From Planctomycetia bacterium (GTDB taxonomy: Bacteria > Planctomycetota > Planctomycetia > JALXBF01 > JBGPMX01): a DNA stretch of 64,000 nt. Location: NCBI GenBank assembly GCA_036758585.1, contig DAIOWH010000009.1, forward strand, positions 1,573 through 65,572. The letters run 5' to 3'. The notes under the pieces were generated by a model, which made no database searches, was not told the DNA's origin, and saw only the letters and a list, made by a program, of their open reading frames with translations. The position numbers were made by a program, and so were the translations under genes. Shown here piece by piece: positions 8,177-25,067 of this stretch (position 1 is its first letter; every line of letters starts with the position of its first letter).

Positions 8177-8429
8177 CGCGTCACTCCGCGGAGACAATCA
8201 CGCCGCCCAGCCGAGTGTATCCGATCGCCGGCTACGATCAAACTCGATGGTAGGTCGTGATACCGTTTGGCAAGCGGGGGCGTCAGCCGGCGTCAGCCCT
8301 CGGTTTTCAGCGGAGAATCGGAGGCTTCACATCCCCCGCTCGCTAGGTGGCATAACCACTCAACCGGGTTGCGGTTTGCAGGCGGGCCTGACACAATCCT
8401 GCGGGGCCGTAGGTCTGGAGGACTCTGCG

Positions 8430-9422: not shown

Positions 9423-9425
9423 GCG

Positions 9426-10448
9426 TTGCAGCCCACCGTGTTGATCGTACCTGGCGTGTTGTTCCACCAGCCCGGCCCGCACGTGGACTTGCTGCGCGCG
9501 GCGGGGTTCGAGATTCGCTACCCGCGCCGGCCGGAGATGTCGACCGAGGCCGAGACGATCGAGGCGCTCGACGGCATCGACGCCACGATCGCCGGCAGCG
9601 AACCGTACAACGAGCGAGTGCTGGCGGCTGCGCCCAGGCTGCGCGTCGTCTCGCGGGCCGGCGTCGGCGTCGATCGGATCGATCTCGACGCCGTCACGCG
9701 ACACGGCGTGGTGGTCGCCATCACACCGGCGGGCAATCACGAGGCCGTGGCCGAACACACGATGGCCATGCTGCTATCGCTCGCTCGGTCGCTCGTGTCG
9801 CAGAACCGCAGCGTGCGCCAGGGCCAGTGGTCGCGCGTTCCGCTGGCACCGCTGCGCGGCAAGACGCTGGGTCTGGTGGGGCTGGGCCGCATCGGTCGCA
9901 GCGTAGCCGTCCGCGCCGCCGCGTTTCGCATGAACCTGCTGGCCTGCGAGCAGGCCCCAGACGTTGAATTCTCACGCCGGCACGCGATTGAACTGGTCGA
10001 TCTGGACGCACTGCTTGCCCGCGCCGATTTCGTTTCACTGCACGTGCCGCTTACCGACGAGACGCGCGGTCTCGTGAATCGCGCGACGCTGGCACGCATG
10101 AAGCCTGGCAGCTACCTCGTGAACACGGCTCGTGGCGGACTGGTCGTCGAGTCTGACCTGCTGGCCGCGCTCGAGTCCGGACATCTTGCAGGCGCCGGCC
10201 TCGACGTGTTCGCCGTGGAGCCGACGCCGGCCGATAATCCGCTGCTGCGCCTGGAAAACGTGCTGGTCACGCCGCACATGGGCGGCGTCGATACTCAGTC
10301 GAACGAAGACATGGCCATCCAGTCGGCCGGGAACATCGTCGATCTCGTTACGGGCAGATGGCCTGACGGCTGCGTGGTGAATGCCGCCGTGAAACAGGTA
10401 TGGTCGCAGCGCCGCCGACTCGTGGCACTGGCCGAGGTGATGAGTTAA
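9426..10448 (+). CDS. D-isomer-specific 2-hydroxyacid dehydrogenase (phosphoglycerate dehydrogenase-like)
   Basis: NAD-binding GLVGLGRIGRSVA and catalytic-region motifs (LVNTARGGLVVESDLLAAL, VFAVEP, TPHMGG). Confidence 0.8.
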   Translation: MQPTVLIVPGVLFHQPGPHVDLLRAAGFEIRYPRRPEMSTEAETIEALDGIDATIAGSEPYNERVLAAAPRLRVVSRAGVGVDRIDLDAVTRHGVVVAITPAGNHEAVAEHTMAMLLSLARSLVSQNRSVRQGQWSRVPLAPLRGKTLGLVGLGRIGRSVAVRAAAFRMNLLACEQAPDVEFSRRHAIELVDLDALLARADFVSLHVPLTDETRGLVNRATLARMKPGSYLVNTARGGLVVESDLLAALESGHLAGAGLDVFAVEPTPADNPLLRLENVLVTPHMGGVDTQSNEDMAIQSAGNIVDLVTGRWPDGCVVNAAVKQVWSQRRRLVALAEVMS

Positions 10449-10519
10449 CCTGCCCACCAAGGAACCGATCCCGCCGTCACCGACCGGCTACCAAAACCCG
10501 AGATTGGAGGTCCTTGCTC

Positions 10520-12247
10520 ATGCCGCTCCTGTGCAGTGCGTCTTGTCAGGCTCGCGGTGTCCGCCGCCGCGCAACCCGTTACGTGATTTCGGGGCTTGCG
10601 GCCGTGATGCTGTCGGCCGCGTGGCCGGCGCCGGCCCGCGCGGACGGGCCGCTGGTGTTTCGCGACGTGGGCGATGAGGCTGGGCTGTTTCCGGCGGTGA
10701 GCAAGATCGCCGGGCACGGAGTCGGCTGGGGCGACGCCGATGGCGACGGCTGGCCCGACCTCTATGTCGGTACGTTCGGCGGCGACCCGGTGCCGTATGC
10801 GTCGAAGCCCAACCAGTTCTTCCGAAACGTACGCGGCAAGTTTGTGCTCGACGAACAGCCGCACCTGCGCATCGTCGGCCGATCGAACGGGGCCGTCTTC
10901 GCCGACCTCGACAACGACGGCGACCTCGACCTGTACACGACGAACCACGCGATCGAGTACCCGGGGCAGCCGCACTTTCAGACCCCGAACGCGCTGTTCC
11001 GCAACGACGGCGGCGGCAAGTTCACCGACGTGTCGGCTGCGACAGGTGCGTGCCCGCGCGGGTTCGCCTGCCGCAGCGTCGCCGTGTTCGATGCCGACGG
11101 CGACACGCTGCTCGACCTCATCGTCGGCGAGTGTTTCTTCCAGGGCGGCACGAGCCGCTCGCGACTGTATCGCAATCTCGGCGGACTGAAGTTCGAAGAT
11201 TACACCAGCAAGGCCGGACTGCCCGACAAGGTCACCGGGTTCGGCGTGGCCGCCGGCGACGTCAACGGCGACACTTGGCCCGACCTGATGTTCGGCGGCC
11301 GGCATCACGGCAACCGGCTGTTCCTGAGCGACGGCGCCGGCAAGTTTCGCGAACTGCCCGCGGCGCACGGCAGTTTTCCGTGGACGTACAAGGACACGCC
11401 CGACGACACGACGTGCGGCGTGTGCATGGGCGATGTGAATCGCGACGGGCTCGTCGATATCGTGATCGGCTCGCACTGCGACCGGCCGTGGTACACCGGC
11501 GGTGTGGCGGTGCGGCTGTTCTTGAACCGCGGCGTCGACGGGGGCCTGCCGCGATTCGAGGACGTCACCGATTCGGTCGGACTCGTGCCGCTGCCGATGA
11601 AAAGCCCGCACGTCGAGATCCAGGACTTCGACAACGACGGCTGGCCAGACATCTATACAAGCATCGTGAAGTTCGCGGGCGGCAAGACCCATCCGGTGAT
11701 CTTCCGCGGCCGTGGCGTGAGCGGCGGCCTGCCGCAGTTTCGCGAAGAGGCGCTCGCCGTCAACGACTTCCCGACCGAGGCCGACAAGAAGGATGGCGAC
11801 GTCGGCGCGTTCTTCGCGCGGATGGAACGCGAAGGCAAGATCGTGTACACCGCCCCCGGCCCGTCGGCCGACTACGACCGCGACGGCCGGCTCGATCTGT
11901 TTCTGGCCAACTGGTGGGTGAACTCGCGCTCGCTGCTCTTGCGCAACGAAACAGCGGCGGGCAACTGGCTGCAAATCGCCGTCAACGGTCAGCCCGGCGT
12001 GAACCGCATGGGCATCGGCTCGGTGGTACGCGTCTACCCGGCCGGCAAGCTCGGCCAGCGCGACGCGCTCTTGGCCGTCCGCGAGATCGCCGTCGGCTAC
12101 GGCTACGCATCGGGCCAAGAAGCGATCGCTCACTTCGGGCTTGGCTCGCTGCCGGCGTGCGACATCGAGATTGTTCTGCCGCACGGCAAGGGCCGGCTCG
12201 AACGCAAAGCCGTGAAGGCGAATCAACTGCTCACCATTGCACCGTAA
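10520..12247 (+). CDS. CRTAC1-family FG-GAP/ASPIC-UnbV repeat protein (secreted)
   Basis: Signal peptide. Repeated Dx(D/N)xDGxxD(L/I)(Y/F) FG-GAP calcium loops (DADGDGWPDLYV, DLDNDGDLDLYTTN, DVNRDGLVDIVIGS, DFDNDGWPDIYTS, DYDRDGRLDLFLANWW). C-terminal UnbV_ASPIC motif GYGYASGQEAIAHFGLG. GGAGG precedes the ATG at 10520. Confidence 0.8.
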   Translation: MPLLCSASCQARGVRRRATRYVISGLAAVMLSAAWPAPARADGPLVFRDVGDEAGLFPAVSKIAGHGVGWGDADGDGWPDLYVGTFGGDPVPYASKPNQFFRNVRGKFVLDEQPHLRIVGRSNGAVFADLDNDGDLDLYTTNHAIEYPGQPHFQTPNALFRNDGGGKFTDVSAATGACPRGFACRSVAVFDADGDTLLDLIVGECFFQGGTSRSRLYRNLGGLKFEDYTSKAGLPDKVTGFGVAAGDVNGDTWPDLMFGGRHHGNRLFLSDGAGKFRELPAAHGSFPWTYKDTPDDTTCGVCMGDVNRDGLVDIVIGSHCDRPWYTGGVAVRLFLNRGVDGGLPRFEDVTDSVGLVPLPMKSPHVEIQDFDNDGWPDIYTSIVKFAGGKTHPVIFRGRGVSGGLPQFREEALAVNDFPTEADKKDGDVGAFFARMEREGKIVYTAPGPSADYDRDGRLDLFLANWWVNSRSLLLRNETAAGNWLQIAVNGQPGVNRMGIGSVVRVYPAGKLGQRDALLAVREIAVGYGYASGQEAIAHFGLGSLPACDIEIVLPHGKGRLERKAVKANQLLTIAP

Positions 12248-12262
12248 CACGCAGACTCACCG

Positions 12263-13588
12263 ATGCGACACACGACACGACGAGAGCATCTGGCCGAGAT
12301 GAGTTTGGGCCTCGCGGCGGTTTCGTTGGGAGGCGGCCTCGGCAGCGTGCGGGCCGCTCAGGCGCCCGCGCGGAAATGGCTGCCGGCCACAGCCTACTGT
12401 GTGCCCAAGGAGACCGCGCCCGAGGGCGAGGGCTACTTCTCGATCATCACCGGACACAACGGGCGACTCTACGTCGGCACGCACGCCAACGCCGTCAACG
12501 CCTGGCTCGTCGAGTTCGATCCCGCGAAGAAGGCGATGGCCGTCGTCGTGGACGCTCACAAGGAGATCGGCACCAACGCCAAGGGCTTTGCCTCGCAGGC
12601 CAAGATCCACACGCGAAACAACGTCGGCGCCAGCGGCAAGATCTACTTTGGCACGAAGCAAGGCTACCCGTCCGACAAGGAAAAACGCGAGGACTACCCC
12701 GGCGGCTACCCGATGGTCTACGACCCGGCCACGGGCAAGACCAAGGTGTACCCGATCCCGGTGCCGCATCACGGCATCAACAGCATCACGCCCGACGAAT
12801 CGCGCGGCATCGCCTACGTCTCAACCTGCTCGGACCACCGACCAGGGCCGGGCGAGAACTCGATCTTCTTGATCCTCGACTTGAACACCGGCAAGTACCG
12901 GACGCTGATGGACACCGAACACTTCTTCGGATTCATCGTGATCGACCATCTTGGCCGGGCCTATCACCCGATCCTCGGCGGCGACATCGCGCGCTACGAC
13001 CCGCGCACCGACAAGCTCGAGCGTCTCAAGCAGACGATCGACGGCAAACCGCCCGCGCCCGAACACCGGCTGAACCTACCCACGCCGGACCCGATCAACT
13101 GGGACATCACTCCCGACGGGAAGACGTTGTATGCCGAGCCGATGACCTGCAACGGACTGTTCAGCTACGACCTGACGGCGACCGGCGACGCGATCCCCGG
13201 CCGCAGCCTGGGCCCGCTCGTCGCCGGCGCGAAGGCGGTCGACTGCCGCGCGATGTGTGTCGGCCCCAAGGGCGACGTGTGGAGCGCGATCACCGAGGAG
13301 GGCACGCCCGAAGTGACCAACCTGCTACACCTGGTCACCTACCGCGCCGGCGACAAGTCGCCCACCGACCTCGGTTGCGTTTCGGTCCGCAACCCGGACT
13401 ACACCGAGTTCACCGGCAAGGACGGCAAGCCGCTGCCGTTTCACAGTGGCCTGGCCAAACTGGCCGACGGCACCTGGACGACACGGCACGTGATCCTCGG
13501 CGTCTCGCAGGCTCAGACCGGCAAGGTCTACGCCCTCATGCTGTGCCCGTACACACTGTTGGAGATCGAGCCGCCCGCGCGGGCGTGA
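12263..13588 (+). CDS. Hypothetical secreted protein (possible Tat signal; beta-propeller-like, no recognisable family)
   Basis: The 441-aa ORF has coding-like composition and an N-terminal RREHL...AAVSLGGG region. No motif could be assigned from sequence. Confidence 0.45.
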   Translation: MRHTTRREHLAEMSLGLAAVSLGGGLGSVRAAQAPARKWLPATAYCVPKETAPEGEGYFSIITGHNGRLYVGTHANAVNAWLVEFDPAKKAMAVVVDAHKEIGTNAKGFASQAKIHTRNNVGASGKIYFGTKQGYPSDKEKREDYPGGYPMVYDPATGKTKVYPIPVPHHGINSITPDESRGIAYVSTCSDHRPGPGENSIFLILDLNTGKYRTLMDTEHFFGFIVIDHLGRAYHPILGGDIARYDPRTDKLERLKQTIDGKPPAPEHRLNLPTPDPINWDITPDGKTLYAEPMTCNGLFSYDLTATGDAIPGRSLGPLVAGAKAVDCRAMCVGPKGDVWSAITEEGTPEVTNLLHLVTYRAGDKSPTDLGCVSVRNPDYTEFTGKDGKPLPFHSGLAKLADGTWTTRHVILGVSQAQTGKVYALMLCPYTLLEIEPPARA

Positions 13589-13593
13589 GCACT

Positions 13594-16500
13594 CTACCGC
13601 CCGATCTCGATGGCCAGCGGTTCAGTCCAGTGTTTTTGCTCGGCGGTGTAATAGAGGTACGTGCGCGAGGCGGGGCCGGTGTAGCGACCGGGCCATTCGG
13701 CGACGAGGTCGAGCTTGATCGCGACTTTCCTAGCCGGCGCGAGCGAGCGCCAGTAGCAGATCACCTCACGGGCGCGGGTTTCGTAGTAGTCGATCGTGCC
13801 GGCCTTCTTCAGTTCTTCGAGCTGGTCGGCCCGCGGCTGCAGGCCGGCGGGAAGGCCGAGGATGGCGATCGTCATTGGCTGACCACGGTCGGTTGTGTTC
13901 ACGAGTTCGGCGTGGAGCGCGACGGTGTCGCCGGCGCGGACCGCGCCGCCGGCGAGCTTGGTCGTCAGCCGGACTGGGCAGTCGGCGTGGTTGGCCGGCG
14001 TCGCAACGCGGTAGCGCACGTCGAGCGCGTAAGGCATCGCGTTGTCGCCGGTGAGCCGGATCGTTAGGTGGTTGTCGCCCGGCCGGAGCTTCGTCGCCAG
14101 GTCGGCGATGGAAATCTCGCGGTCGTGGCCGGCACCAAACGGCGCGTGGCCGATCGCTTCGCCGTCGCGGCTGACGATCAGTTCGCCGCCGCTGACTGTC
14201 TTGCGGTTCGCCTTTGAGTGTTCGACGAGCGCCTTGAGCGCGAGGATCGTCGCCTGAGTGGAACCCCAGCCGCCGCCCTGGCGATGCGCGACGATCCACT
14301 CGACGGCCTTGTCGGCGTTTTGGTGGTAGGTCGGGACCTTGAGGAACGCCAGCGCCGCCAGCGCCGTCGTTTCGGCCGTGAGCGATATTCCGCCCGACCG
14401 CGTGATCGAGCCTTCCTTGCCGTCGAGCCGCCCGTCGCCGGCCTGCGATTCGGCGAGCTTGTCGAGTAGCTCCTTCGCGGCCGCGTGCTGCCCGCCGTTC
14501 ACCGCGCTGGCCGCGGCGAGTGCGACCAGGTACGGGTCGTCCGACTTTCTGGCGAGTTCAATCACGTGCGCGATCTCCGTCGCGATGTTCTGTTCGCCCG
14601 ACTCGGTGAGCGCCCAGACGATGTAGGCGTCGGTGATGTGTGGCGGTGCGCCGCCGAAGCTATCGAGCGCCCGCGGGTTTCGCTGAAAACCGCCCTTGCC
14701 GTCGCGACGCGCCAGCAACCACGCGGCCGTCCGCTCGATCATCTGCCGATCGACCGGGTAGACTTCGGCCATGTCGCGGAACTCCATCAATCCGTACGCC
14801 GTGAGCGCCTCGTGGCCGGGATCGCCGCCGAACCATTCGTAGCCGCGCTCCTTGCACTCGTAGGCGGTCAGCTTGGCGTAGCCGTTTTTCAGAAGCTCGC
14901 GGGCGCGGCGCGTGATCTCGGGGTCCGCGACCTTGTGCTCCTGCATGTACTGCATCGTCAGCACGTTCGGATAGTTCGACGTCGACGCCTGCTCGAAGCA
15001 GCCGTACGGCTCGCGCAGGATGCTCTCGACTCCCTTCTGCAAGTCGGCAAGCGTGGACGGGAACGCGGCGAGCGAGATTTCGAGCGATCCGGGCACGATC
15101 GTGTCGGGCAGCGTCAACGTCACGCGATGGTCGCCTTCGAGCCGGCCAGCGTGCGATTGAAGCGCAGGGAAACCGGCCGGGACGACCGCGATCGTCTGCT
15201 TCTTTGCGTCGGCCAGTCGCCCGGCGGCGCCGCGGACCTCGATGTCGGCGAAGCCGCTGCGGCCGAGGACGTTCAGCGTGAAGTGCTCGCGCGATCTCGT
15301 GCCTGGTCCGAGCACGAGCGTCCGCTTCGCGTCGCCTTCGATGGCCATTTGGTCGCCGGCCGAAAGGGTGAGCGTCACCGGCAGTTCGCCGCGCGTGTCG
15401 TTGCCGATCGCGACTGGCAACTCGATGCGATCGCCGGCGTTGACCTCGAGCGGCAGCTTCGGCTCGATGGTGAACGGGATGCGCGAGACGACCTCGCCCG
15501 TGCCAACGCCGATTCGGCCCGCGCCGTTGTGCGCGTCGGCGAGCACGCGAAACGTCGTGACCGAGTCGGACAGGTCGAACCGCGCCGTCGCCCGGCCGTC
15601 GGCGTCGGTGATGAGCATCGGGTGCCAGAACACGGTCTCGGCAAAGTCGCTGCGCACGCCAGGCTCGCCGCCGCTGTGTTTGTGCGCGTACTCGCGCACG
15701 GTGAAGCGGTAGCGCTCCAGACCTAGTTGCAACCGCGCGGCCGCCCCGAAAAGATTCGCCTCGTCACCAAGCTGCTTCGCGCGGCCGAGTTCACGGCGCA
15801 GCTCGCCAAGTTGACGCAGGCCGAGTTTTTCCTGCTCAAGCGCCTCCAGCATGGCCTGCCGCTTGCCGGCCCGCGCGTCTAACTTGTCGAACCGGTTGGC
15901 GAACTTGGCCAGGAACGCATCCTCGGCTGGTTCACCCCGCAGTTTTCCCTTGAACTCTTTGTCCCAAAAGAAATTGTGGTCGGCACCTTTAGCCCAGAGC
16001 ATATTCAGCCCCGCCAGAGCTTCGTCCTTGACGCCGTCACGCCCTTCCGCGACCAACCTGACCGCTTCGGCCAATCGCTGGTGCACCTTGGCCTGCTCGG
16101 CGGCCAGTTGGTCGTTGGCCATCTTGGCCAACTCGGGTGCGGCTTTCGGACTTGCGGCCGCCGCCGGCTCCGGCTCCCTCCGGACCAAGAATCTCTCGAA
16201 CGCGGCCGATGCGAACTGGAGTGGCTGGTGCGGCTGCGGGTTCATCCAAAACAGGCCAACCAGCAGGCACGCGGTCGCGGCGGCGAGAGTCGGGACGCAG
16301 AATCGAACGGTCGGGGCCAGACGCAGCATCGTGAGCAGTACGGCGGCAACCGCAACGACGAGGCCGCCCGCTAAACTCATGGCGCCGAGCCGCTCGAGCG
16401 CCTGCTGCTGCTTGGCGGAGTGCGCGGCGAGGTGAGCTTGGTATTCACTTTGAGCGTCAGTCAGGTTGTCGAACATCGTGGGAGGCGTGATGTGGCCATC

Positions 16501-18768
16501 GAGCGACGCGAGCCGAGTCAGTTCCGCGCCGCCGGTCGCCGCGAACTGCGGGTCGCTGATCTGCGCCTCGACGAAACGTCGCCAACCCTGCGTGCCCAAG
16601 AGCAGGTCAAGCGCGGCCGGGGCCTTGGCCTCGGCCGACAGATAGAAGTCGGCCTTCTCCAGATCTTCGGGCTTCTCGACCTCGGTCGTGAGGTAGAAGT
16701 GAGTCGTCATCTGCGGTGTGTCGTCGTCGGCCATCTTCAGGAGTGCGTCGTCCACGACGGCGACGCCGAGCACGGCCGGAGTCGGCTCGCCGCGCTCGTT
16801 GGTCACCATGAGCGACACCTGCACCGGGTCGCCGGGCGAATACGACTCGCTCTCGCCGGCGACGCGCACGTCGAGCCGCCGGTCGGGGCGGCGATAGACG
16901 AGCCGCTCGGCGACCGGCCGCGGCGGCTGCGCGCTGTAGTCGAACACCGTGAGACGCACGACGCCCGCGGCCTCGGCGGCGATCGGCACGGCCAGCCGGT
17001 TCGAGCCGAGCCGCGTGACGAGCGCCTGCTGGCCGACCTGCACGCCGCGGCAGTACGCCGATGCGACCAGCGGCAGGTCCGACCTACCGGCGCGAACGTC
17101 GAGTTCGATCGAGCGACCCGGCTCGAATACGCCGGCGCCCGTGGCCAGCACCACGTGCCGCTCGGTGTTCACGTCGGGCAGACGCGGCTGGCTGATCACG
17201 TCGGCCGGCTTGGCGATCTTCAGCGAATAGGTCTCGCCCCGCTTCGGCGCGAAGGCGAACGAACCCATGCCCTTGTGCGCGGTCTCGACCTTGGCGACCT
17301 CGCGGCCCTGGCCATCGACGACGTAGCCCTCGATGTGGACCGGCTCGCCGCCGGGGTTACGCGCGACGAAGTAGACGCGGTTGTCCAAGTCGGCGACCAA
17401 GTCGCCGCCTTCGGGGAAGAAGCGGACGTCGACCTTGCCGAGGTTGATGCGAATTGTTTTGGCGATCGTCTCAGCCGCGCCGCCATCGTCCACGACGACG
17501 GCAAGCTGGGCGTCGCCCTTGTCGATCGCGGCGGGCAGTTGGAATTCAATCTGAAACGCGCCCGCCGGCCCGGCCTGCGCGGTTGCCTGGTGGACGTTTT
17601 GGCCGTCGACAGTCGCGGTGATGCGCAGTGTCGCGCCCGCCACAGCGCCGCCTTCGGCCCGGGTCGCCGCGAAGTCGGCCACGACCCGATCGCCCGGCGC
17701 GTAGCTGTCGCGAGTGAACTCGAGTTCCTTCTTGAGCCGCGGCAGTCGGTAGCGTCGGATGAAGAACGGCCGCTGCTCTTCGGGGAACGCGTCGTCGATC
17801 GCCCGCGCGACCAGCGTGAACCGGCCGCCGGCGATGTTCGGCGGGAGCTGAAACGACCCGCTGCCGACGCCGCGGTCCGTGACGCCCTCGAGTTCCGAAC
17901 CGGCCACGACGGCGCCCGATGGGTCGCGAATCTCGAAGTGAATCGGCGTCTCTTGCGGCGTGTCCAGTCCGAATCGACCCAGCGTCAGGGAGCGGTAGAA
18001 CACAGTCTCGCCCGGCTGATAGAGCGGCTTGTCGAGAGCAAGCTGAGTCACGAACCGTCGCTCGTCGACCGCGAGCTGCGAGTGCATGCGCGTCAGCTTG
18101 CCGTGGTGTACGGCGAGCACCTCGAACCGCGATCCGTTGGGCAGCGACACGTCGGGCGGCACGGCGGCGATCACCTGGCCGCTGGCATCGGTGTGTTGCG
18201 TCTTTTCGAGCAGCGTTGTGCCGTCCGGCGCGTGAACAGCGTACTGGACGTCGACATCGAGCGGCTCGCCGGTCACGGAAGTCGTCTGTACGGTGAACTG
18301 GTTGGTCAGGCCCGCGGCGACCTTGGCCGGCCCGGTCACGACTAGTCGCAGATGTTCGTCCGCAATGTCGGCGACCTGCGCGCGGTGCCGTGCGTAGCCG
18401 CTCGCGGTGATGACTACTAGTACGGCCGCGGCCAGGCCCACGACCCACTTGAGACCGCTCGCCCACACTCGCCCTCGCGACGCACTCGCTGGCAGTTCTG
18501 ACGACAGGCCACTCGCGCGGGCGGCGCTCAAGCCGGGTTCGTCGACGACCGCGCCGCCGCCATCCGGCCGAGCCAATTGCAGGCGAGGCACGTGCAATCG
18601 CGCCGCCGCCTCGAACAGCTTGGCCCGGTGCTGAGCCGCGGCATACGCGCGGGCTACATCCGGATCGCTTTCGATGCGTCGCCGCAGCGCCGCGGCCTCG
18701 TCGTCGCCCAAGAGGTCGTAGGTCAGCTCCAGCAGTTGCTGGTGCAGTTCGTCGTTGAGTTGGTTCAT
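13594..18768 (-). CDS. Anti-sigma-factor N-terminal domain + TM + MG-domain array + alpha-2-macroglobulin thioester domain (1724 aa); cognate of the adjacent ECF sigma factor
   Basis: N-terminus has an RskA/ChrR-type anti-sigma-like segment (LLELTYDLLGDDEAAALRRRIESDPDVARAY) followed by a TM helix. A long series of MG-like beta domains follows, then a mid-protein hydrophobic hairpin. The C-terminal A2M region carries the thioester motif PYGCFEQ. GGGAGA SD precedes ATG 18768. It lies 45 nt downstream of the ECF sigma gene. Confidence 0.7.
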   Translation of the reverse strand: MNQLNDELHQQLLELTYDLLGDDEAAALRRRIESDPDVARAYAAAQHRAKLFEAAARLHVPRLQLARPDGGGAVVDEPGLSAARASGLSSELPASASRGRVWASGLKWVVGLAAAVLVVITASGYARHRAQVADIADEHLRLVVTGPAKVAAGLTNQFTVQTTSVTGEPLDVDVQYAVHAPDGTTLLEKTQHTDASGQVIAAVPPDVSLPNGSRFEVLAVHHGKLTRMHSQLAVDERRFVTQLALDKPLYQPGETVFYRSLTLGRFGLDTPQETPIHFEIRDPSGAVVAGSELEGVTDRGVGSGSFQLPPNIAGGRFTLVARAIDDAFPEEQRPFFIRRYRLPRLKKELEFTRDSYAPGDRVVADFAATRAEGGAVAGATLRITATVDGQNVHQATAQAGPAGAFQIEFQLPAAIDKGDAQLAVVVDDGGAAETIAKTIRINLGKVDVRFFPEGGDLVADLDNRVYFVARNPGGEPVHIEGYVVDGQGREVAKVETAHKGMGSFAFAPKRGETYSLKIAKPADVISQPRLPDVNTERHVVLATGAGVFEPGRSIELDVRAGRSDLPLVASAYCRGVQVGQQALVTRLGSNRLAVPIAAEAAGVVRLTVFDYSAQPPRPVAERLVYRRPDRRLDVRVAGESESYSPGDPVQVSLMVTNERGEPTPAVLGVAVVDDALLKMADDDTPQMTTHFYLTTEVEKPEDLEKADFYLSAEAKAPAALDLLLGTQGWRRFVEAQISDPQFAATGGAELTRLASLDGHITPPTMFDNLTDAQSEYQAHLAAHSAKQQQALERLGAMSLAGGLVVAVAAVLLTMLRLAPTVRFCVPTLAAATACLLVGLFWMNPQPHQPLQFASAAFERFLVRREPEPAAAASPKAAPELAKMANDQLAAEQAKVHQRLAEAVRLVAEGRDGVKDEALAGLNMLWAKGADHNFFWDKEFKGKLRGEPAEDAFLAKFANRFDKLDARAGKRQAMLEALEQEKLGLRQLGELRRELGRAKQLGDEANLFGAAARLQLGLERYRFTVREYAHKHSGGEPGVRSDFAETVFWHPMLITDADGRATARFDLSDSVTTFRVLADAHNGAGRIGVGTGEVVSRIPFTIEPKLPLEVNAGDRIELPVAIGNDTRGELPVTLTLSAGDQMAIEGDAKRTLVLGPGTRSREHFTLNVLGRSGFADIEVRGAAGRLADAKKQTIAVVPAGFPALQSHAGRLEGDHRVTLTLPDTIVPGSLEISLAAFPSTLADLQKGVESILREPYGCFEQASTSNYPNVLTMQYMQEHKVADPEITRRARELLKNGYAKLTAYECKERGYEWFGGDPGHEALTAYGLMEFRDMAEVYPVDRQMIERTAAWLLARRDGKGGFQRNPRALDSFGGAPPHITDAYIVWALTESGEQNIATEIAHVIELARKSDDPYLVALAAASAVNGGQHAAAKELLDKLAESQAGDGRLDGKEGSITRSGGISLTAETTALAALAFLKVPTYHQNADKAVEWIVAHRQGGGWGSTQATILALKALVEHSKANRKTVSGGELIVSRDGEAIGHAPFGAGHDREISIADLATKLRPGDNHLTIRLTGDNAMPYALDVRYRVATPANHADCPVRLTTKLAGGAVRAGDTVALHAELVNTTDRGQPMTIAILGLPAGLQPRADQLEELKKAGTIDYYETRAREVICYWRSLAPARKVAIKLDLVAEWPGRYTGPASRTYLYYTAEQKHWTEPLAIEIGR

Positions 18769-18813
18769 GGCGTCTCCCGTGGAGTCTGCCGCGAGGGCAG
18801 TGGTTCTCGAATG

Positions 18814-19428
18814 TCATTGCGCCGCGAGCGCGGCCCTCAGTTTCGCAATCGCCAGCCGCATGCGCGTTCGCACGGTGCCGGGCGGGATGCCCAACTCGCG
18901 GCCGATCTGGTCGTAGGTCAGTCCGGCATTCTGGCGGAGCAGGAAGACGTCCTGTTCCTCGGGACGCAGGTCGCTGACGGCGCGACGGACAAGTGCGAGC
19001 TCCTCAGCGTCTTCGAGTTCAGACCGCGTGTGCCGTTCTGTGGTGACCAGCATCTCGTGCGCTCCTTCTTGCAGCAGCCGGCGACGTCGCCCGGTCGCTC
19101 GTCTCAGGTCGCGGCCCGTGTTTAGGGCGACGCGGAATATCCATGCCTTGAGGTTCTCGACTACGCTCAGTCCGTCGCGGTTGCGCCAGCACTTGACGAA
19201 AGTCTCTTGAAGTGCGTCGCGTGCGTCCTCGACATTGCCCACCAGGTGAAACAGCGTTCCGAGCAGTTCGTCCTGATAGAGCGCAAACGCTTGCACGAGC
19301 GAACGAGCAGCCTCGCCGTCGTCCGCCGCCTCGGCCCGCGGGGCTAAGCGTGTGAGCTTCATGGGCTTTGCAGATAAGACGCTGGAGGGGGGGATTTGGT
19401 TTCGCGTAACAAGATTGCCGCTACTCAC
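18814..19428 (-). CDS. ECF (sigma-70 family group IV) RNA polymerase sigma factor
   Basis: Region 2 (LVQAFALYQDELLGTLFHLVGNVEDARDALQETFVKCW) and region 4 HTH (LTYDQIGRELGIPPGTVRTRMRLAIAKL). Start may be GTG 19428 or the internal ATG at about 19362. Confidence 0.85.
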   Translation of the reverse strand: MSSGNLVTRNQIPPSSVLSAKPMKLTRLAPRAEAADDGEAARSLVQAFALYQDELLGTLFHLVGNVEDARDALQETFVKCWRNRDGLSVVENLKAWIFRVALNTGRDLRRATGRRRRLLQEGAHEMLVTTERHTRSELEDAEELALVRRAVSDLRPEEQDVFLLRQNAGLTYDQIGRELGIPPGTVRTRMRLAIAKLRAALAAQ

Positions 19429-19440
19429 TCGGGGAACGGA

Positions 19441-19575
19441 ACCACAAAGGGCACAAAGAGCACACAGGGGGATCTTCTCGTCACGATCGCTTCCTCTTTG
19501 TGTTCTTTGTGCCCCTTGTGGTTGAATCCCGATGCGCGGTTGAACCGGTGCAACGGCTCAACGGTTCAACGGTCC
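19441..19575. promoter_or_regulatory. Imperfect 26-bp inverted repeat (ccacaaagggcacaaagagcacacag / ctttgtgttctttgtgccccttgtgg) plus three tandem heptamers (CAACGGC/TCAACGGT/TCAACGGT) between the cytochrome gene 3' end and the ECF sigma start
   Basis: Read directly from sequence. Position is consistent with a terminator for the cytochrome gene and/or an operator/promoter of the ECF sigma operon. Confidence 0.4.
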
Positions 19576-19577
19576 AG

Positions 19578-21182
19578 CTATTTCGCGCCGCGGATCATTT
19601 CGCGAATGGCGGGCCAGAGTTTCTCGTCCTCGCCGGCGGGTTCGCCGTGTTCGACGTCGGCCCAACGCTCGTCGAAGTCGAATCCCGGATCGTTATCGTG
19701 ATCGTGGCAGCGCTCGCACAGGTTGTGATCCTTGGTTTGCGGTTTGGTTCGCACCAATCTGCGGGCGCGGGCGCGGTCTTCGTCGGTGGCGTCGAGGTTC
19801 AGGTATATCTTCACGTGCTCGCTGCCGGGGCCGTGGCAGTTTTCGCAGCCGTTGCCGTTGAGGTGCGCCGTGTTGGGCAGGCCGTCGTAGCCGCCGGTGT
19901 AGAAGAATCCCGTGGTATGACAACTGACACATTCGGGGTTCACGTGCTTGCCGGGGGCGATCCGCTTGCCTTGCTCTTCGTGACCGTTCACCAATGTCTC
20001 GAGTGCATGCGCGTGGCGCGTACCCTTCCAGAACTTGAACACGTTTGGATGGCACTGTTTGCACGCATCGGAGCCGAGAAAACGCAACTGCGGTCCGTCG
20101 GGGTAGGGCACCCGCGGCGCGTTTTCCACCAGTTTCAGCTCACGGTACTTTTCGATGAGATCTTCGTCGAGCAGCTTGCGAATCTCCTTGTCATGCTCAA
20201 ATCGGTCGTCGAGCGGCACGAGTTGGTAGCGCATTCGCTCGCCCTGGCTGAATACCCCGATCGCGCCGGTGTACTTGCCCTGAGCGCCGATCGTCACGAG
20301 CATGGTCTTGCCATTGTTGGCCCATTCGGCGTTGCTCGTCGGTTCGTCGGCGTCGTAGGTGTGGATGATCACGTCGAGGTCAGGGAACTTGGCGGCCAGC
20401 GCCTGGGCCTCCGAGATCGGACCGTAGAGCAGCACCACTTGCAGGTCCGAGGCCTGTTTCAGCTCGGGCAGCTTCTGCTGAAGCACGTCGGCAGGCGGCA
20501 TCCATCGCCGAATCTCAGGGTCGGCCATCTGATCTTTGTGCTTGTCACCGACCAACCCGACGACGCCTACCCGGGTGTTTCCCACTTGGCGGACGAACGC
20601 CGGGTAGACAAGTTTCTCCTTGTGCCAATCTTCGGTAATGTCCAAGTTCAAGCTGACGACGCGCGGCTCGGCTGGCCTGTCGACGTTGATCAGCATTCCC
20701 ATGAGACCGACAAAGCCGTTGCGTACGGCGATGTCTTCGGGAGCGATGTTTAACACGGTGTAGCGCATTCGTTGCATGGCTAGCAGGGCCACTTCCATTT
20801 TGGCCCCAGCCTGTTCGGCGCCGGCGACGAACTTGATGTGAGCGGTCTGCCGGCTGTGGTTGTCGAGCACGCCGCCGAGATCGAGGCAGAGCGTCGGCCA
20901 TTGCCGCTGGCTCAAGCTGCGAATGAACGTCATGCGGCGGGCGAGTCCGCCCTTTTGGAACTCAGGCGAGCAGCCGCACGGTTCGAGGTAGCCCCACTGT
21001 TGACCAGAAAAAACAATGACCGCGTCGGGCTTCGGCCAGTCGCGAAACAACTCCAGGCGCTGGTCCAGCTTGGCCGTTGGTTTCCCTTGAGGCGGGGTTG
21101 GGTTGCCGCCCGAACAGACGACGCAGGCCACTGCCGTGGCGACGATTCCAGCGAACGCGATACCAATCGAGCGAATGTACAC
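19578..21182 (-). CDS. Multiheme c-type cytochrome (4 CXXCH) with N-terminal domain of unknown function; secreted
   Basis: CKQCH, CVSCH, CENCH, CERCH in the C-terminal half. N-terminal signal anchor. Confidence 0.7.
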   Translation of the reverse strand: MYIRSIGIAFAGIVATAVACVVCSGGNPTPPQGKPTAKLDQRLELFRDWPKPDAVIVFSGQQWGYLEPCGCSPEFQKGGLARRMTFIRSLSQRQWPTLCLDLGGVLDNHSRQTAHIKFVAGAEQAGAKMEVALLAMQRMRYTVLNIAPEDIAVRNGFVGLMGMLINVDRPAEPRVVSLNLDITEDWHKEKLVYPAFVRQVGNTRVGVVGLVGDKHKDQMADPEIRRWMPPADVLQQKLPELKQASDLQVVLLYGPISEAQALAAKFPDLDVIIHTYDADEPTSNAEWANNGKTMLVTIGAQGKYTGAIGVFSQGERMRYQLVPLDDRFEHDKEIRKLLDEDLIEKYRELKLVENAPRVPYPDGPQLRFLGSDACKQCHPNVFKFWKGTRHAHALETLVNGHEEQGKRIAPGKHVNPECVSCHTTGFFYTGGYDGLPNTAHLNGNGCENCHGPGSEHVKIYLNLDATDEDRARARRLVRTKPQTKDHNLCERCHDHDNDPGFDFDERWADVEHGEPAGEDEKLWPAIREMIRGAK

Positions 21183-21213
21183 AAACGGCTCCTTCCGTTT
21201 TCCTGCGGCCTGG

Positions 21214-22341
21214 TCACTGACTAACGCTGCCTCGGACCGGAATCTTGATCAGCTTGGCAGACTCGTGCGTAGTTTCCAGTTCGATGGTGCCGCGAAAGTC
21301 GCCGCCCGGCGCCCCCGCCGGCACCTCGACGGTCAGACGATAGAAGTTCTTTGCCGATTCGGACGGCTTCAACGAAACTTTGAGGAAAGCAACGGGCACC
21401 TTGGCCACTTTGACCTCGACCGGATCGGGCGTGCGGACCTTGATGAACAGGTTCTTCGTGCCGCCTTGGTTCACCTTGACGGTTTGGAAATCTATGCGGT
21501 CGTCCGGTGTGAGGATCACGTCGCCGACCACCTGGCCGGCGACCGTGAGGTCGAGCGTCGGCCGTTCGGCGTAGTTCGTCTTGAGTGTGAGCTTGCCGCC
21601 GAACGGGCCGATCGGCAGCCCGGGTTTTACCTCCACGATCACTTTAGCGCCGCTTTTTGCTTCCATGAGGCTGAGATAGTCTGCAGTCGCCGGTTCGAAC
21701 GTCGCTGTGATCAGTTCGTTCGATGTGTCGAACCCGGTGAGTTCCAGGTTGTCCAGTTTTCTCGAATACACGTACATGCTCTGAGTGGTCGATTCGCTGC
21801 TGCGGGCTTCGTCGAACTGAACCTGAATCAGGGTCTGTTCTACGAAGGCGACAATCTTGCCCGAGACAAATGTCTCGACAATAGGCAACGCTACGTCGTT
21901 GCTCAGTATCTTGGCGCTGGTGCGAAAATCGCCCGCCCGAAGCTCTGTGTCCCACGACATTTCAACGGCGGCTGACTGGCCCGGTGGAACCCGGATCGCC
22001 TCGGTCGGCGGCAAACCCTTCTTCGGTTCCCACAACAAGTGGGCCAGCTTGACGCTCGTGCAACCACACGATGTGTTGGCGATGCGCAGCTCGAGATCCC
22101 CTTCACCCTCGTTCTTCACGTTGAAGACGTGCGTGCCTTTCTGCTGCTGGTCCATGGTTCCGAAGTCGAACTCAGTCACGTCGAGCACAGCCTTGGGCGG
22201 CGGGCCCTTGGGCGGCTTGGGTAGCTCCAACTGGCCGTTGCCAGCCGATTCGCTCGGTTCTTCGCCCGGCGAACGAAAACGCCCCCAAGCCAGAAAGGAT
22301 GCGACCGCTACAACAACAACGACGCCGACAAGTCGCTTCAT
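21214..22341 (-). CDS. DUF1573 domain protein (secreted)
   Basis: N-terminal TM/signal. DUF1573 signature FDFGTMDQQQKGTHVFNVKNEGEGDLELRIANTSCGCT. GAGGAG SD. Confidence 0.65.
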   Translation of the reverse strand: MKRLVGVVVVVAVASFLAWGRFRSPGEEPSESAGNGQLELPKPPKGPPPKAVLDVTEFDFGTMDQQQKGTHVFNVKNEGEGDLELRIANTSCGCTSVKLAHLLWEPKKGLPPTEAIRVPPGQSAAVEMSWDTELRAGDFRTSAKILSNDVALPIVETFVSGKIVAFVEQTLIQVQFDEARSSESTTQSMYVYSRKLDNLELTGFDTSNELITATFEPATADYLSLMEAKSGAKVIVEVKPGLPIGPFGGKLTLKTNYAERPTLDLTVAGQVVGDVILTPDDRIDFQTVKVNQGGTKNLFIKVRTPDPVEVKVAKVPVAFLKVSLKPSESAKNFYRLTVEVPAGAPGGDFRGTIELETTHESAKLIKIPVRGSVSQ

Positions 22342-22468
22342 ACGTCTTCTCCTCGGATCACCTCAGCCAGTATTCGGAAGATGATGGATCATGACTACGT
22401 CATTCTAATTGGGCATCAACTGCTTGCAAGGCGGGGCTCCGAATGGGGTGTATTCCCGTAGCTGCGCC

Positions 22469-22563
22469 TCGCTCGTTTAACCCGCAGCCGCAGGCGAGGT
22501 CGTGTTTGATCCGTGCAATTCGCACGATGCCGACCTCGCCTGCGGCTGCGGGTTAAGCGAGCG
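22469..22563. repeat. GC-rich palindromic repeat element, copy 1 (33-bp arms cgctcgtttaacccgcagccgcaggcgaggtcg, one mismatch; 28-nt loop with inner palindrome gtgcaattcgcac)
   Basis: Read directly. Located between the DUF1573 gene start and the O-antigen-ligase gene 3' end. Confidence 0.75.
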
Positions 22564-22634
22564 ACGAATGCAATTACGGGTATGTACCCCTGCGAATGGA
22601 CGGACGTGGCGGCGACTGGGTCGCGATGCCCTTG

Positions 22635-24899
22635 TCACCCTTGCTCCAGGGTCCCTCGTTTGTCGCGATCGAGCCGCTGCATGATCACCGCGCGTTCGTC
22701 ATTCGAGAGCTTTTTGTCCACGTGTGGCGTGCCCGCGTCCAACTCGAGCGCCCGCTGCATTTCCTGCTGGGCCGCTTCCGTGTTGCCTGCCTGCCACAGC
22801 GAGTCCGCCAGTCGAGCGTGCAGCGTCGCGCTGGTCGGATACAACTCCACGCACGCCCGGAACGAATCGGCTGCCCGGGACCACCACGCCGGCGATTGAT
22901 CGCGCCGGCCCCGCGCCGCGAACAGTTCCGCCTCGAGTCGCCGGCTTTCAAGGTCGCGCGGCGACACCTGCGCCGCCATGCGCAAGGACTCGGCGGCCAG
23001 GTCAAACTCAGACTCTGCTGTTCGACGGCGACCTGACCACCAGCGCTGGTAGTGAATACGCGACAGTTCCAGCCACGGTTCGACCCACTCGGGATCCGAT
23101 CGGGCCGCGGCCTGAAACTGGGCTTCCGCCGCCGCCAACTCGCCCTGGCTGAGCCGCCACCGCCCGACCGCCACCGCCGACTGGGCCGCAGTGACCGGCT
23201 GCAGCACCCACAGTCCGAACCACACGACCATCGCGGTTGCCGCGGCCAGCAATGCTCGCGCGCACCACGGACCACGCACCCACGGCTCGCTCGCCTCATC
23301 GCGTGCGTTCAAACCGAGGGCCAATAGTACCCAGAGACTCTGCGCGACGCCTGGCATGCCGATGCCTCCGGCGCCGAGCAGGTGGATGGCCAGGCCGAGC
23401 GCCGCAACTGCGAAGGTTCGCGGCCCTAAGGAACTGTGTCGGCCGACGACCGCCAGACTCGCCGCGGCAAGGCACCAGCCCAACGCCAGCAAACAATGGA
23501 ATATCGGCTCGAGCGGCGCGAGCACCATCGCCGCGACCCAACCGCCCGCGCCGGCCGCGGCCAGCAGACGCCAGTCGAGTTCGGTCTGACGGCTGGTGGT
23601 TGACGCGGACGATCGCCCCGCTCGCCACAGCGCGGCGAAAAGCGTGAAGACGAAGGCCGCGCCAGCGAACGCGCCGCTCGTGGCGCACAGCTCCAGCACC
23701 ATGTTGTGCGGATCGGCGATCTCTTCGCTCGATTCGGGCAGCTTATACTTCAAGTAGTGGCTGCGAAAGTTTCCCGGACCGACGCCTGCCCACAAGTGGT
23801 CGCTCACGAGATCCACTGTCGCCGTCCAGTATTGCCAGCGATAGCCCAGCGACTTGGTCGCCTGCGTCACGAGCTTGGCGTCGATCTTAGCGAGCCGCTT
23901 GGCTTCGATGAGCGCGACCGCCAGCGCAACCACAGCCATAACGGCCGCGATCGCGATCGCCCGCCGCGCTGGGCGTTGCCGCATCGTACGCACAAGAGCT
24001 GCACCACCCGCCAGAGCCAACAGCACGATTTGAACCAGACACGCGGCGTAGGCCGTGCGGCTTTGCGTCAGCACCAGGCACAACACCATCGCGAGCATAC
24101 CGACGCCACTGACGATTTCGGCGACCCACCACGCCGCACCACCCTCGCGTCTCGCCGTGGTCTCGTCGCTCGCGGACGAACGGCCTGAGTGAGTCGCACT
24201 CTCGGCGTTCGGCAGTCCCGTCGACCGACCGAACAGCCACACCAGACCGATGGGCAACCACGCGACCAGGAATCCAGCCAGCGAATTGGCCAAGGCGAAC
24301 GTCGCGAACGGTTCGTGCGACATCAGCCGATTCTTAAACGACTGCTCTTGCGGACTGCCGGGGGCGATGCCGATCGTTTCCAGCACACCGCTTGGATCGC
24401 TGAGGTATTCGGCCCGCAGCGGCTGCAGGCCCCAGAAGACCTGGTAGATCCCGTAGCTCGCCAGGCTCACAGCGGCCGCTGCCAGAATCAGCGCGAGTGC
24501 GTGCCGCGCTTCGGAGCGGCGAAAGAGCTGTCGCACAAGAAAGTACGACAGCACCAGACTGGTCCATTCGCACGCCATGATCAGCGCCGGCCGCCGCGCT
24601 TCGGCCCACGCCGCGGAGATTAGCACAGCCGCCAGCAACACCACGGCGCCCGCATCGGCGACGCACACGACGATACGCACCGGCCCACGCGCCCACTGCG
24701 ACGCGGCCCACAGAATGCCGACAACGCCCCACAGGGCAACCACGAGCAACCCACTGCCTGCGTCGGCATCCTCGCTCGGGAACAGCGGTCGAACGAGCAC
24801 CAACGCGGCGGCCACGATCGCAGCCGTACGCTCGAGTCGGTCGGCTACGCGCGCCGCGACCGCAGTCGGGTTTGGTCGTTGAGTTCGTTGGCGCCCCAC
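22635..24899 (-). CDS. O-antigen ligase (Wzy_C) family polytopic membrane protein with C-terminal TPR domain
   Basis: At least 10 TM helices. Wzy_C-like motif HNMVLELCATSGAFAGAAF. C-terminal TPR-like repeats. Confidence 0.65.
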   Translation of the reverse strand: MGRQRTQRPNPTAVAARVADRLERTAAIVAAALVLVRPLFPSEDADAGSGLLVVALWGVVGILWAASQWARGPVRIVVCVADAGAVVLLAAVLISAAWAEARRPALIMACEWTSLVLSYFLVRQLFRRSEARHALALILAAAAVSLASYGIYQVFWGLQPLRAEYLSDPSGVLETIGIAPGSPQEQSFKNRLMSHEPFATFALANSLAGFLVAWLPIGLVWLFGRSTGLPNAESATHSGRSSASDETTARREGGAAWWVAEIVSGVGMLAMVLCLVLTQSRTAYAACLVQIVLLALAGGAALVRTMRQRPARRAIAIAAVMAVVALAVALIEAKRLAKIDAKLVTQATKSLGYRWQYWTATVDLVSDHLWAGVGPGNFRSHYLKYKLPESSEEIADPHNMVLELCATSGAFAGAAFVFTLFAALWRAGRSSASTTSRQTELDWRLLAAAGAGGWVAAMVLAPLEPIFHCLLALGWCLAAASLAVVGRHSSLGPRTFAVAALGLAIHLLGAGGIGMPGVAQSLWVLLALGLNARDEASEPWVRGPWCARALLAAATAMVVWFGLWVLQPVTAAQSAVAVGRWRLSQGELAAAEAQFQAAARSDPEWVEPWLELSRIHYQRWWSGRRRTAESEFDLAAESLRMAAQVSPRDLESRRLEAELFAARGRRDQSPAWWSRAADSFRACVELYPTSATLHARLADSLWQAGNTEAAQQEMQRALELDAGTPHVDKKLSNDERAVIMQRLDRDKRGTLEQG

Positions 24900-25043: not shown

Positions 25044-25067
25044 ACCCCTTTCAATGTGAAGCAGTAC

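Follow-up and report, generated by a model that had tools for sequence, protein, structure and literature searches.

A planctomycete ECF sigma factor gene paired with a gene that joins a predicted anti-sigma domain to a complement/A2M-type thioester protein

The stretch of DNA analyzed here (64,000 nucleotides from a Planctomycetia bacterium, contig DAIOWH010000009.1 of assembly GCA_036758585.1; hereafter the window) carries a gene for an extracytoplasmic function (ECF) sigma factor followed by a gene for a 1,724-aa protein, in which a predicted cytoplasmic anti-sigma domain is joined through a transmembrane (TM) helix to a large region of the complement/alpha-2-macroglobulin (A2M) type. We propose that the two genes form a self-induced sigma/anti-sigma module whose periplasmic protease sensor is the complement/A2M-type thioester protein, a reading to which we give a probability of about 0.55. 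Proteins of the A2M/complement type with a thioester are known as protease traps and opsonins, and many different sensor domains have been described in ECF anti-sigma factors. Here the two well-known modules are joined in a new way, with a membrane topology that is new for the A2M family. No literature linking macroglobulin or A2M with an anti-sigma or ECF sigma factor was found; the main text of the ECF reclassification is silent on such a link, though its supplementary tables might list the context.

The gene pair and its conservation

The two genes and their promoter are as follows.

18814..19362, minus strand: ECF sigma factor gene, 182 aa from the ATG at 19362 (the longest open reading frame (ORF), 18814..19428 from the GTG at 19428, is 204 aa)
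13594..18768, minus strand: gene of the anti-sigma/A2M-like thioester fusion protein, an ORF of 1,724 aa whose start lies 45 nt past the sigma stop
19376..19403, minus strand: ECF-type promoter GAAACC-N16-CGTCTT, with the -35 element GAAACC at 19403..19398, the -10 element CGTCTT at 19381..19376 and the ATG 13 nt past CGTCTT

An earlier reading of this DNA, made by a model from the letters and ORFs (the sequence-only reading), had proposed an ECF sigma factor gene upstream of a protein of about 1700 aa, the latter with an array of macroglobulin (MG) domains, a GCFEQ thioester motif, a TM helix after its N-terminal domain and a hydrophobic hairpin in mid-protein. Both ORFs are indeed found in this order on the minus strand, and the domain searches and hydropathy analysis described below bear out the rest of that description. 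The parts of the fusion protein follow one another as anti-sigma domain, TM1, MG1-MG6, TM hairpin plus variable segment, MG7, thioester domain (TED) and C-terminal MG domain. The ORF is uninterrupted, and no second copy of either gene is present in the 64-kb window. More than 100 full-length homologs of the 1,724-aa protein were found, at identities of 40-81%, and since there are so many and the gene pair is kept wherever upstream DNA is available, the architecture cannot be due to chance.

The sigma factor matches Pfam Sigma70_r2 (39.5 bits) and r4_2 (49.2 bits), both above cutoff, and TIGR02937 (85 bits against a cutoff of 42.9). Sigma-2 and sigma-4 are its only domains, and judged by these matches the product of 18814..19362 is an ECF (group 4) sigma-70 factor. 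No NCBIfam subfamily or equivalog model reaches its cutoff, so that no named ECF subgroup is assigned; TIGR02989 (the Rhodopirellula/Verrucomicrobium family) scores 72 bits against the required 124.6.

Conservation of the pair was followed in a survey of 80 loci, with one genome per species, which were split into group A and group B. The 27 loci of group A come from Pirellulales, Planctomycetaceae, Gemmataceae, Zavarzinella and one metagenome-assembled genome (MAG) labeled Brocadiaceae, and their proteins, of 1,630-2,030 aa, have a TM segment near residue 100-130 and a TM hairpin near 800-950. A co-oriented ortholog of the window sigma factor is found directly upstream in every one of them (27/27; phmmer E 1e-22 to 1e-59), and the pairing, whose conservation across Planctomycetota the sequence-only reading had proposed to survey, is thus kept in these long-form loci. 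Rhodopirellula baltica (locus L042) has the long form too. The distance between the two genes, measurable in 21 of the 27 loci, ranges from a 4-nt overlap of stop and start, observed in nine loci, to a gap of 173 nt; in the other six the fusion gene is split into several ORFs or its longest ORF overruns the sigma gene. A flanking-gene search and all-against-all clustering of the 27 loci found no other conserved neighbor, only shadow ORFs of the pair.

Some individual loci call for comment. In three MAG loci (L003, L005 and L028) the fusion gene appears as two or three ORFs that overlap, most likely through frameshift errors. Two contigs of MAGs labeled 'uncultured Alcaligenaceae' (L019 and L044) carry a Gemmataceae-like sigma/anti-sigma-A2M pair, which suggests mis-binning or a wrong label, and a third contig with the same label (L060) is truncated, with no more of the A2M gene than its C-terminal part. 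A Frigoriglobus MAG (L016, 5368-10653) encodes a hairpin-type A2M with a different cytoplasmic N-terminus that does not have the sequence LLELxYDLL, and there is no orthologous sigma gene upstream; the upstream ORF at 4310-5272 is sigma-like by eye, and Pfam gives only Sigma70_r4 at E 0.005.

Group B consists of proteins from Myxococcota, Bacteroidota, Burkholderiales and some Planctomycetota. They are 1,350-1,770 aa long, mostly 1,400-1,550, have N-termini resembling a signal peptide or lipobox, and have no hairpin. None of the group B loci has an orthologous sigma gene directly upstream; five have a weak ECF match nearby (E 5e-8 to 2e-4). Two loci of Undibacterium spp. (L055, 5698-12118, and L059) have a secreted, hairpin-less group B A2M gene that is followed by an ECF sigma gene (Pfam r2 and r4, E 1e-12 to 1e-14), the longest ORF of which overlaps the end of the A2M gene, and then by a 435-aa ORF, which begins with a 4-nt overlap of the sigma stop. 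Such an arrangement may represent an unfused linkage of A2M, sigma and anti-sigma genes.

A promoter motif, AAWCC-N16-CGTCT(T), precedes the sigma gene in 26 of 28 loci and lies 13-20 nt ahead of the ATG. Because this spacing is conserved, the ATG at 19362 is more likely to be the sigma start than the codon at 19428. Its strict form turns up in 9 of the 28 upstream regions, where shuffled sequence gives a mean of 0.04, and 15 of its 16 matches in 397 kb of group A loci are at the position upstream of sigma. It also stands ahead of all four sigma genes examined that belong to the short form of the protein described below. An AAC-type -35 element and a CGT-type -10 element ahead of a sigma gene are the usual signature of an autoregulated ECF operon. 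Since a conserved promoter of the ECF type precedes the sigma gene, the sigma/anti-sigma operon is probably autoregulated, the promoter presumably being used by its own sigma factor. One further copy in the window (38733..38759, minus strand) was rejected, as it is antisense within a 986-aa ORF and about 1.2 strict matches are expected in the window by chance. A scan of 13300..19700 for sigma-70 promoters and intrinsic terminators gave nothing above shuffle level.

Domains of the fusion protein

The domains, in order from the N-terminus, are listed below with their residue numbers.

18589..18768, minus strand: predicted class I anti-sigma domain on the cytoplasmic side, derived from the zinc-binding anti-sigma (ZAS) type but zinc-less; residues 1-60, with helices at 3-16, 22-34 and about 36-57
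18388..18456, minus strand: TM1, predicted N-in/C-out; residues ~105-127, after a disordered cytoplasmic linker (61-104); helix 102-138 in the AlphaFold (AF2) model
16564..18354, minus strand: periplasmic MG array from MG1 to the first half of MG6; residues 139-735, including a conserved helical linker ending LLLGTQGWRRF
16240..16401, minus strand: TM hairpin; TM2 (~790-814), a 10-aa Arg-rich cytoplasmic loop (two Arg) and TM3 (~821-843); AF2 helices 769-814 and 821-842
15709..16239, minus strand: variable periplasmic segment, the proposed bait; residues 844-1020 (~180 aa), fast-evolving and largely disordered
15367..15636, minus strand: second half of MG6 and start of MG7; Pfam A2M at residues 1045-1134 (59.5 bits)
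14221..15048, minus strand: TED; residues 1241-1516, Pfam TED_complement (105.7 bits, E 3e-30)
14989..15003, minus strand: thioester motif GCFEQ; residues 1256-1260
13633..13944, minus strand: putative C-terminal MG8/MG10-like (receptor-binding-domain-like) domain; residues 1609-1712

The sequence-only reading took the N-terminus to be an anti-sigma domain and had named a lack of profile similarity there as the observation that would speak against it, a test that we consider too strict. Pfam gives no anti-sigma match on window residues 1-131, nor does NCBIfam on the whole protein, and to that extent the claim did not stand for the window copy; the identity of the domain was for this reason drawn from orthologs and from structure, where it did. 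A full-length ortholog (P0115), which begins MKTCQEF..LYGLLEDAEAAELERHLAGCPLCRR, matches zf-HC2 with 35.7 bits (cutoff 22.2; E 9e-9), and weak matches to the same family are found in 3 of 40 family members. The HxxxCxxC motif occurs at aligned positions in P0115 and in the Gemmataceae-type loci L009, L027 and L035, in the latter three as C...HxxxCxxC. The window copy does not have it, reading RRRIESDPDVARA at the aligned positions, and the zinc ligands have been lost in most copies from Pirellulales as well. Because orthologs carry the canonical motif at aligned positions, the window domain is, by this alignment, a zinc-less descendant of a ZAS-type domain; HxxxCxxC defines the ZAS subclass and not the whole of class I.

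The structural comparison agrees with this assignment. An AlphaFold model of residues 1-68 has three helices and a mean predicted local distance difference test (pLDDT) score of 91.7. The top Foldseek match of the model is RskA in complex with SigK (probability 0.92, template modeling score (TM-score) 0.55), and the TM-scores are 0.58-0.60 for RsiW, MucA and ChrR and 0.38 for PupR. When a profile of 40 N-termini was compared with PDB sequences, RskA was the only full-domain match, at a sub-threshold E of 0.36. Each of these lines of evidence has a modest score because the domain is small, and all of them agree. Taken together, ortholog sequences and modeled fold support the view that the N-terminus is a class I anti-sigma domain by fold and ancestry. 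From the analogy with known anti-sigma factors we infer that it binds and inhibits the sigma factor encoded upstream.

Across the family the first 60 residues have the consensus LLELxYDLLxxxEAAxLRxRIxSDPxVAxAYAE, in which E14, Y17, L19, L20, L28, I32 and A39 are invariant or nearly so, and the column identity of the domain is 0.58 versus 0.28 for the linker that follows. A profile of the domain searched exhaustively against 1.84 billion representative proteins (50%-identity clusters) gave 673 matches at E <=1e-3 and 367 at E <=1e-10; this search was used in place of a word-indexed homolog search with the same profile, which had returned 12 short fragments only. The architecture is thus widespread; members of the fusion family come from Pirellulales, Planctomycetales, Gemmatales and the MAG labeled Brocadiaceae. 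All ten of the profile-matched proteins scanned have MG2 at about residue 230-385, and the domain type thus appears to be restricted to MG proteins. In six Gemmataceae-type loci (L009, L019, L027, L035, L044 and L053) TM1 and the first MG domain are separated by an additional charged stretch of 60-80 aa (residues ~120-200) that resembles a coiled coil.

Pfam identifies MG2 at residues 244-332 (69 bits) and A2M_BRD at 548-679 in the MG array, in addition to the A2M and TED_complement matches listed above. An AlphaFold model of residues 1-1200 (pLDDT 81.6, predicted template modeling score (pTM) 0.73) has the MG array as beta-sandwiches with pLDDT 87-97, and Foldseek finds it similar to C3, C4, C5, CD109, A2M, A2ML1 and ECAM with E values from 1e-40 to 1e-30. 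By phmmer against PDB sequences the closest protein is CD109 (E 2.5e-28), then human A2M (1.6e-22), A2ML1, TEP1 and C3, and E. coli YfhM/ECAM is found at 1.3e-8. Residues P1254, G1256, C1257, F1258, E1259 and Q1260 do not vary among 28 sequences, and 113 of 118 homologs of at least 1,400 aa carry GCxEQ, the motif of the predicted thioester.

The C-terminal domain has sub-threshold Pfam matches (bMG10, 20.9 bits against a cutoff of 26.2; A2M_recep, 18.3 against 21.7); the phmmer alignment to human A2M reaches query residue 1710, and this region is highly conserved. Pfam finds no ligand-binding domain other than MG and TED in the fusion protein and gives no match on its middle region. There is no lipoprotein signal peptide at the N-terminus, where the anti-sigma domain and TM1 are found instead. 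Four long-form homologs reach 2,000-2,530 aa; P0049 contains PF07596, and P0082, P0084 and P0085 contain PF12951 (autotransporter-associated beta-strand repeats).

The variable segment has the lowest column identity in the protein (0.24, with 0.66-0.72 in the flanking regions). Compared with the closest homolog, which is 81% identical overall, the segment is 42% identical and its flanks are 80-94% identical. The span from GWRRF to RFxVRxYAH that contains it varies from 225 to 392 aa across homologs, and the AF2 pLDDT falls below 50 at 844-888 and 925-966. Beyond it the phmmer alignments resume at query residues 1032-1039, opposite human A2M 730 and C3 764, which, going by the established domain maps, we take to be the first residues past the bait region and the anaphylatoxin (ANA) domain, respectively. 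Because the alignments resume just past these positions, residues 736-1030 correspond to the activation-segment insertion in MG6. The insertion holds a helical lead-in, TM2, the loop, TM3 and the variable segment; at the equivalent position in group B proteins there is a plain low-complexity segment of 120-220 aa. By its position, predicted disorder and variability, segment 844-1020 is proposed to be bait-like and is predicted to be cleaved by proteases.

Kyte-Doolittle hydropathy finds three TM segments, at about 108-126, 794-812 and 823-841, with peaks of 1.98, 2.35 and 1.95. The mean net charge in 44 sequences is +2.5 ahead of TM1, +2.0 in the hairpin loop and -0.66 past TM3, which, together with the model, fits a topology in which the N-terminus and the hairpin loop are inside and both large parts are periplasmic. 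The hairpin is kept in more than 100 homologs, is present in nearly all of the long and short ones, and is not found in the secreted group B relatives. A114 of TM1 is at least 90% conserved, and TM3 has a conserved pattern of small residues, WxPALxAAxACLxxG, which suggests specific helix packing. Conservation is clearly higher in the TM segments and the anti-sigma domain than in the linkers, a difference suggesting that these parts serve for more than anchoring the protein. TM1 also carries a conserved Ala pair, which recalls the Ala-rich degrons that are exposed by site-2 cleavage in RseA and RsiW.

A shorter form of the protein, in which the TED is absent, makes up a large sister family. About 50 of the best 150 profile matches are proteins of 750-1,360 aa that align only to window residue ~1082-1104, and most of them end soon past a shared motif, ..DAHxxGRLGS.., equivalent to window residue ~1095. 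They stop at a point that takes in the first 53 positions of Pfam A2M, which we read as the second half of MG6. Short forms thus consist of the anti-sigma domain, TM1, a complete MG1-MG6 ring and the insertion with hairpin and variable segment. In the 41 short forms checked, TM1 and one or more hairpin helices are always found, GCxEQ or a TED never (0/41). That they are fragments from contig ends was considered and ruled out by the common end residue and motif and by four complete genes (L081, 4001-7474; L082, 3001-7005; L083, 3001-5892; L085, 2378-5761), with a gene of normal size following in L082 and L085. Each of the four is preceded by a co-oriented ECF sigma gene (179-190 aa; E 1e-55 to 1e-63 to the window sigma factor), which is as close to the window sigma as those of the long form. 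What the family shares is, then, a doubly membrane-anchored MG ring with a bait-like tether. In three of the four loci a second ECF sigma gene is located divergently upstream (L081, 893-3192; L082, 1-2276; L085, 858-1502), and in L081 and L082 a Ser/Thr protein kinase gene comes after it.

How the module might signal

The main question then is how an event in the periplasm could free the sigma factor. According to the reading we favor, the anti-sigma domain would at rest keep the sigma factor at the membrane. A periplasmic endopeptidase, either foreign or the cell's own, would cut the exposed bait-like segment, and the fusion protein would then, like other members of the A2M family, rearrange its MG ring extensively, which in the long form would expose the thioester and allow the protease to be captured. 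The rearranged or cleaved protein would be unstable, and the likeliest route to sigma release would be regulated intramembrane proteolysis of the RseA/RsiW/RsiV kind; alternatively, the conformational change might be passed on through a bundle of the three TM helices. Sigma, once freed, would drive transcription of its own operon at the least, so that the spent trap is replaced, and its targets might include further genes in other parts of the genome.

Several points weigh against this protease-sensing module as we have drawn it. Sigma binding, cleavage within 844-1020 and thioester formation are predictions, and the variable segment could be a mere disordered linker. Cleavage of the bait leaves the 650-aa MG1-MG6 part on TM1, which is no standard substrate of a site-2 protease, and for this reason either an extra trimming step or the conformational route would be needed. 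The small-residue pattern of TM3 and the Ala pair of TM1 may bear on this step. No regulon beyond the operon was found in the flanks of related loci (397 kb) or in the 64-kb window. Finally, to judge from the sequences of the TED-less family, sigma-coupled signaling needs no thioester. Any coupling that is specific to protease capture is weakened by this large sister group, which has the same sigma factor, promoter, anti-sigma domain, hairpin and variable segment. Since the relatives without a TED have all the other parts, bait cleavage or ring rearrangement is a likelier common trigger than covalent capture.

There is also a more specific and more tentative form of the proposal, for which we would put the odds at roughly one in three: the complement/A2M-type protein would itself act as a transmembrane receptor in which proteolytic attack on the membrane-tethered bait directly releases sigma by way of the fused anti-sigma domain and the bundle of three TM helices, the short form being a pure sensor and the long form a sensor and a trap. 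A possible route for it is that cleavage would leave TM3 with a short outer stub, in an orientation that site-2 proteases accept.

Is a protease necessarily the stimulus? The MG ring could instead bind some other periplasmic or envelope ligand and signal through a bundle of TM1, TM2 and TM3, with the variable segment as a flexible tether. The conserved TM3 pattern would suit such a sensor, as would the short form, which keeps ring, hairpin and sigma without a TED, and disordered linkers too evolve fast. We nevertheless consider this unlikely. The variable segment is located exactly where every characterized member of the superfamily is activated by proteolysis (PMC5764988), the thioester motif of the long form is invariant, and nothing in the protein beyond MG and TED was recognized by Pfam as a ligand-binding domain.

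A pure homeostat is a somewhat less probable alternative still. The long protein would mainly be a trap that protects the envelope, and its anti-sigma domain would only titrate sigma one to one so that a fixed stock of intact trap is held, with the sigma factor controlling its own operon and nothing else, and with no broader response to stress. Such an arrangement would suit the facts that only the sigma gene and the anti-sigma gene are conserved together, that the promoter motif is found at the operon and essentially nowhere else in the related flanks or the window, and that the thioester motif does not vary. The promoter search covered flanking DNA only, however, and a regulon could lie elsewhere in the genome; moreover, the TED-less short form has no trap to restock and yet keeps the circuit.

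It is improbable that the N-terminal domain is a degenerate relic which does not bind sigma, the sigma factor merely driving expression of a membrane-anchored A2M and being itself controlled in some other way. The loss of the zinc ligands in the window and most Pirellulales copies, and the lack of a significant Pfam match for the window copy, are what one would expect of a relic, but the domain is better conserved than its linker and has several near-invariant residues, RskA and MucA are functional class I domains that have no zinc and are among its best structural matches, its profile finds proteins of this family only, and stop and start codons of the pair overlap by 4 nt in nine loci. Lastly, the idea that the fusion is an artifact of assembly or gene calling, made of separate anti-sigma and A2M genes, can be dismissed in spite of the split genes in three MAGs, for which frameshifts are the simplest reading, because in more than 100 independent full-length homologs, of differing assembly and source, the gene is likewise one ORF and that of the window is uninterrupted.

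If the more tentative receptor reading is true, this would be the first A2M-family protein that acts as a signal transducer and not only as an inhibitor or opsonin, and the planctomycete circuit may be self-contained, combining sensing and response in a manner reminiscent of innate immunity. Should the protease-sensing mechanism hold, it would provide a direct molecular route from extracellular proteolysis to bacterial transcription, a topology new to the A2M family, in which the bait insertion contains a TM hairpin, and a set of promoter, sigma and anti-sigma with a possibly protease-gated input that is potentially an orthogonal switch.

Neighboring genes and comparison with known systems

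The surroundings of the module in the window are as follows.

19440..19523, minus strand: long stable hairpin with a stem of ~35 bp, between the cytochrome gene and the sigma promoter
19539..19570, minus strand: second hairpin in the same cytochrome-sigma intergenic region
19578..21182, minus strand: multiheme cytochrome (Cytochrome_C554, E 3e-18), upstream
21214..22341, minus strand: DUF1573/Ig-like protein, upstream
22635..24899, minus strand: Wzy_C (O-antigen-ligase-type) protein with TPR repeats, upstream
12263..13588, plus strand: 441-aa ORF with no Pfam match, convergent and ending 5 nt from the stop of the A2M-like gene
10400..12247, plus strand: FG-GAP/ASPIC-UnbV repeat protein, ahead of the 441-aa ORF

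The 156-nt intergenic RNA has a predicted folding energy of -70.4 kcal/mol and a fold z-score of -6.4. Going by the predicted fold, the hairpin at 19440..19523 is probably a transcript boundary, and the hairpins in this gap may be a terminator or a repeat element. The cytochrome, DUF1573 and Wzy_C genes are not conserved beside the module in other genomes. G+C content is ~0.62-0.69 in window positions 1..34000 and falls to ~0.57-0.62 in 36000..64000.

Like the class I anti-sigma factors of the RskA-SigK, RsiW-SigW, RslA-SigL, ChrR-SigE and MucA-AlgU pairs, the window protein has an N-terminal helical domain, an N-in TM helix and a gene placed right after that of an autoregulated ECF sigma factor. 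It differs from them in that the window copy is zinc-less and that its extracytoplasmic part is of the A2M type, comprises 1,600 aa and re-enters the membrane twice. Known class I anti-sigma factors are released by DegS or PrsW and then a site-2 protease, or by redox or metal signals. A parallel in function is RsiV-SigV of Firmicutes, where the outer domain of the anti-sigma factor engages the attacking lysozyme directly, which leads to sigma release and a protective response. The analogy is limited to function, as the folds are unrelated, lysozyme is not a protease, and there is no covalent capture.

A 2018 paper divides bacterial A2Ms into just two types: type I, thioester-containing lipoproteins that are coexpressed with penicillin-binding protein 1c (PBP1c), and type II, MagD, encoded in the six-gene mag operon (PMC5764988). 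In type I, cleavage of the bait is followed by rearrangement and covalent capture (PMC5764988). The window protein resembles type I A2Ms such as E. coli ECAM/YfhM and Salmonella Sa-A2M in being a predicted periplasmic, inner-membrane-attached MG array of the monomer type with a proposed bait and a CxEQ TED, and Foldseek comparison of the fusion protein with type I A2M folds gives E values of 1e-31 to 1e-36. Unlike these PBP1c-linked lipoproteins, it is anchored by a TM helix and a hairpin and has a cytoplasmic anti-sigma domain and an ECF sigma partner. The sequence-only reading had drawn this same contrast, and the description of type I cited above upholds it (PMC5764988); no PBP (pbpC) gene is adjacent to the fusion gene in the window. 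Type II MagD, an A2M-like protein at the inner membrane that has a bait but no thioester (PMC5764988), can be compared with the TED-less short form, but MagD keeps a TED-like region, is anchored through a separate protein, MagB, and has its gene in an operon of six genes that has no sigma factor. Because it has no lipoprotein signal, PBP1c neighbor or mag operon, the window protein fits neither bacterial type.

Eukaryotic thioester proteins (CD109, A2M, A2ML1, TEP1 and C3/C4/C5) provide the best sequence and fold matches, and the window protein shares with them a TED of the TED_complement type and, at the corresponding place in MG6, a proposed activation segment. It is set apart from them by its bacterial origin, its three TM segments, the motif CFEQ in place of CGEQ, the hairpin within the bait/ANA insertion and the fusion to transcription control. 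Its sequence is much nearer to CD109 and human A2M than to YfhM. This raises an evolutionary question, for the clade is nearer, by sequence, to CD109 and A2M than it is to the A2Ms of enterobacteria.

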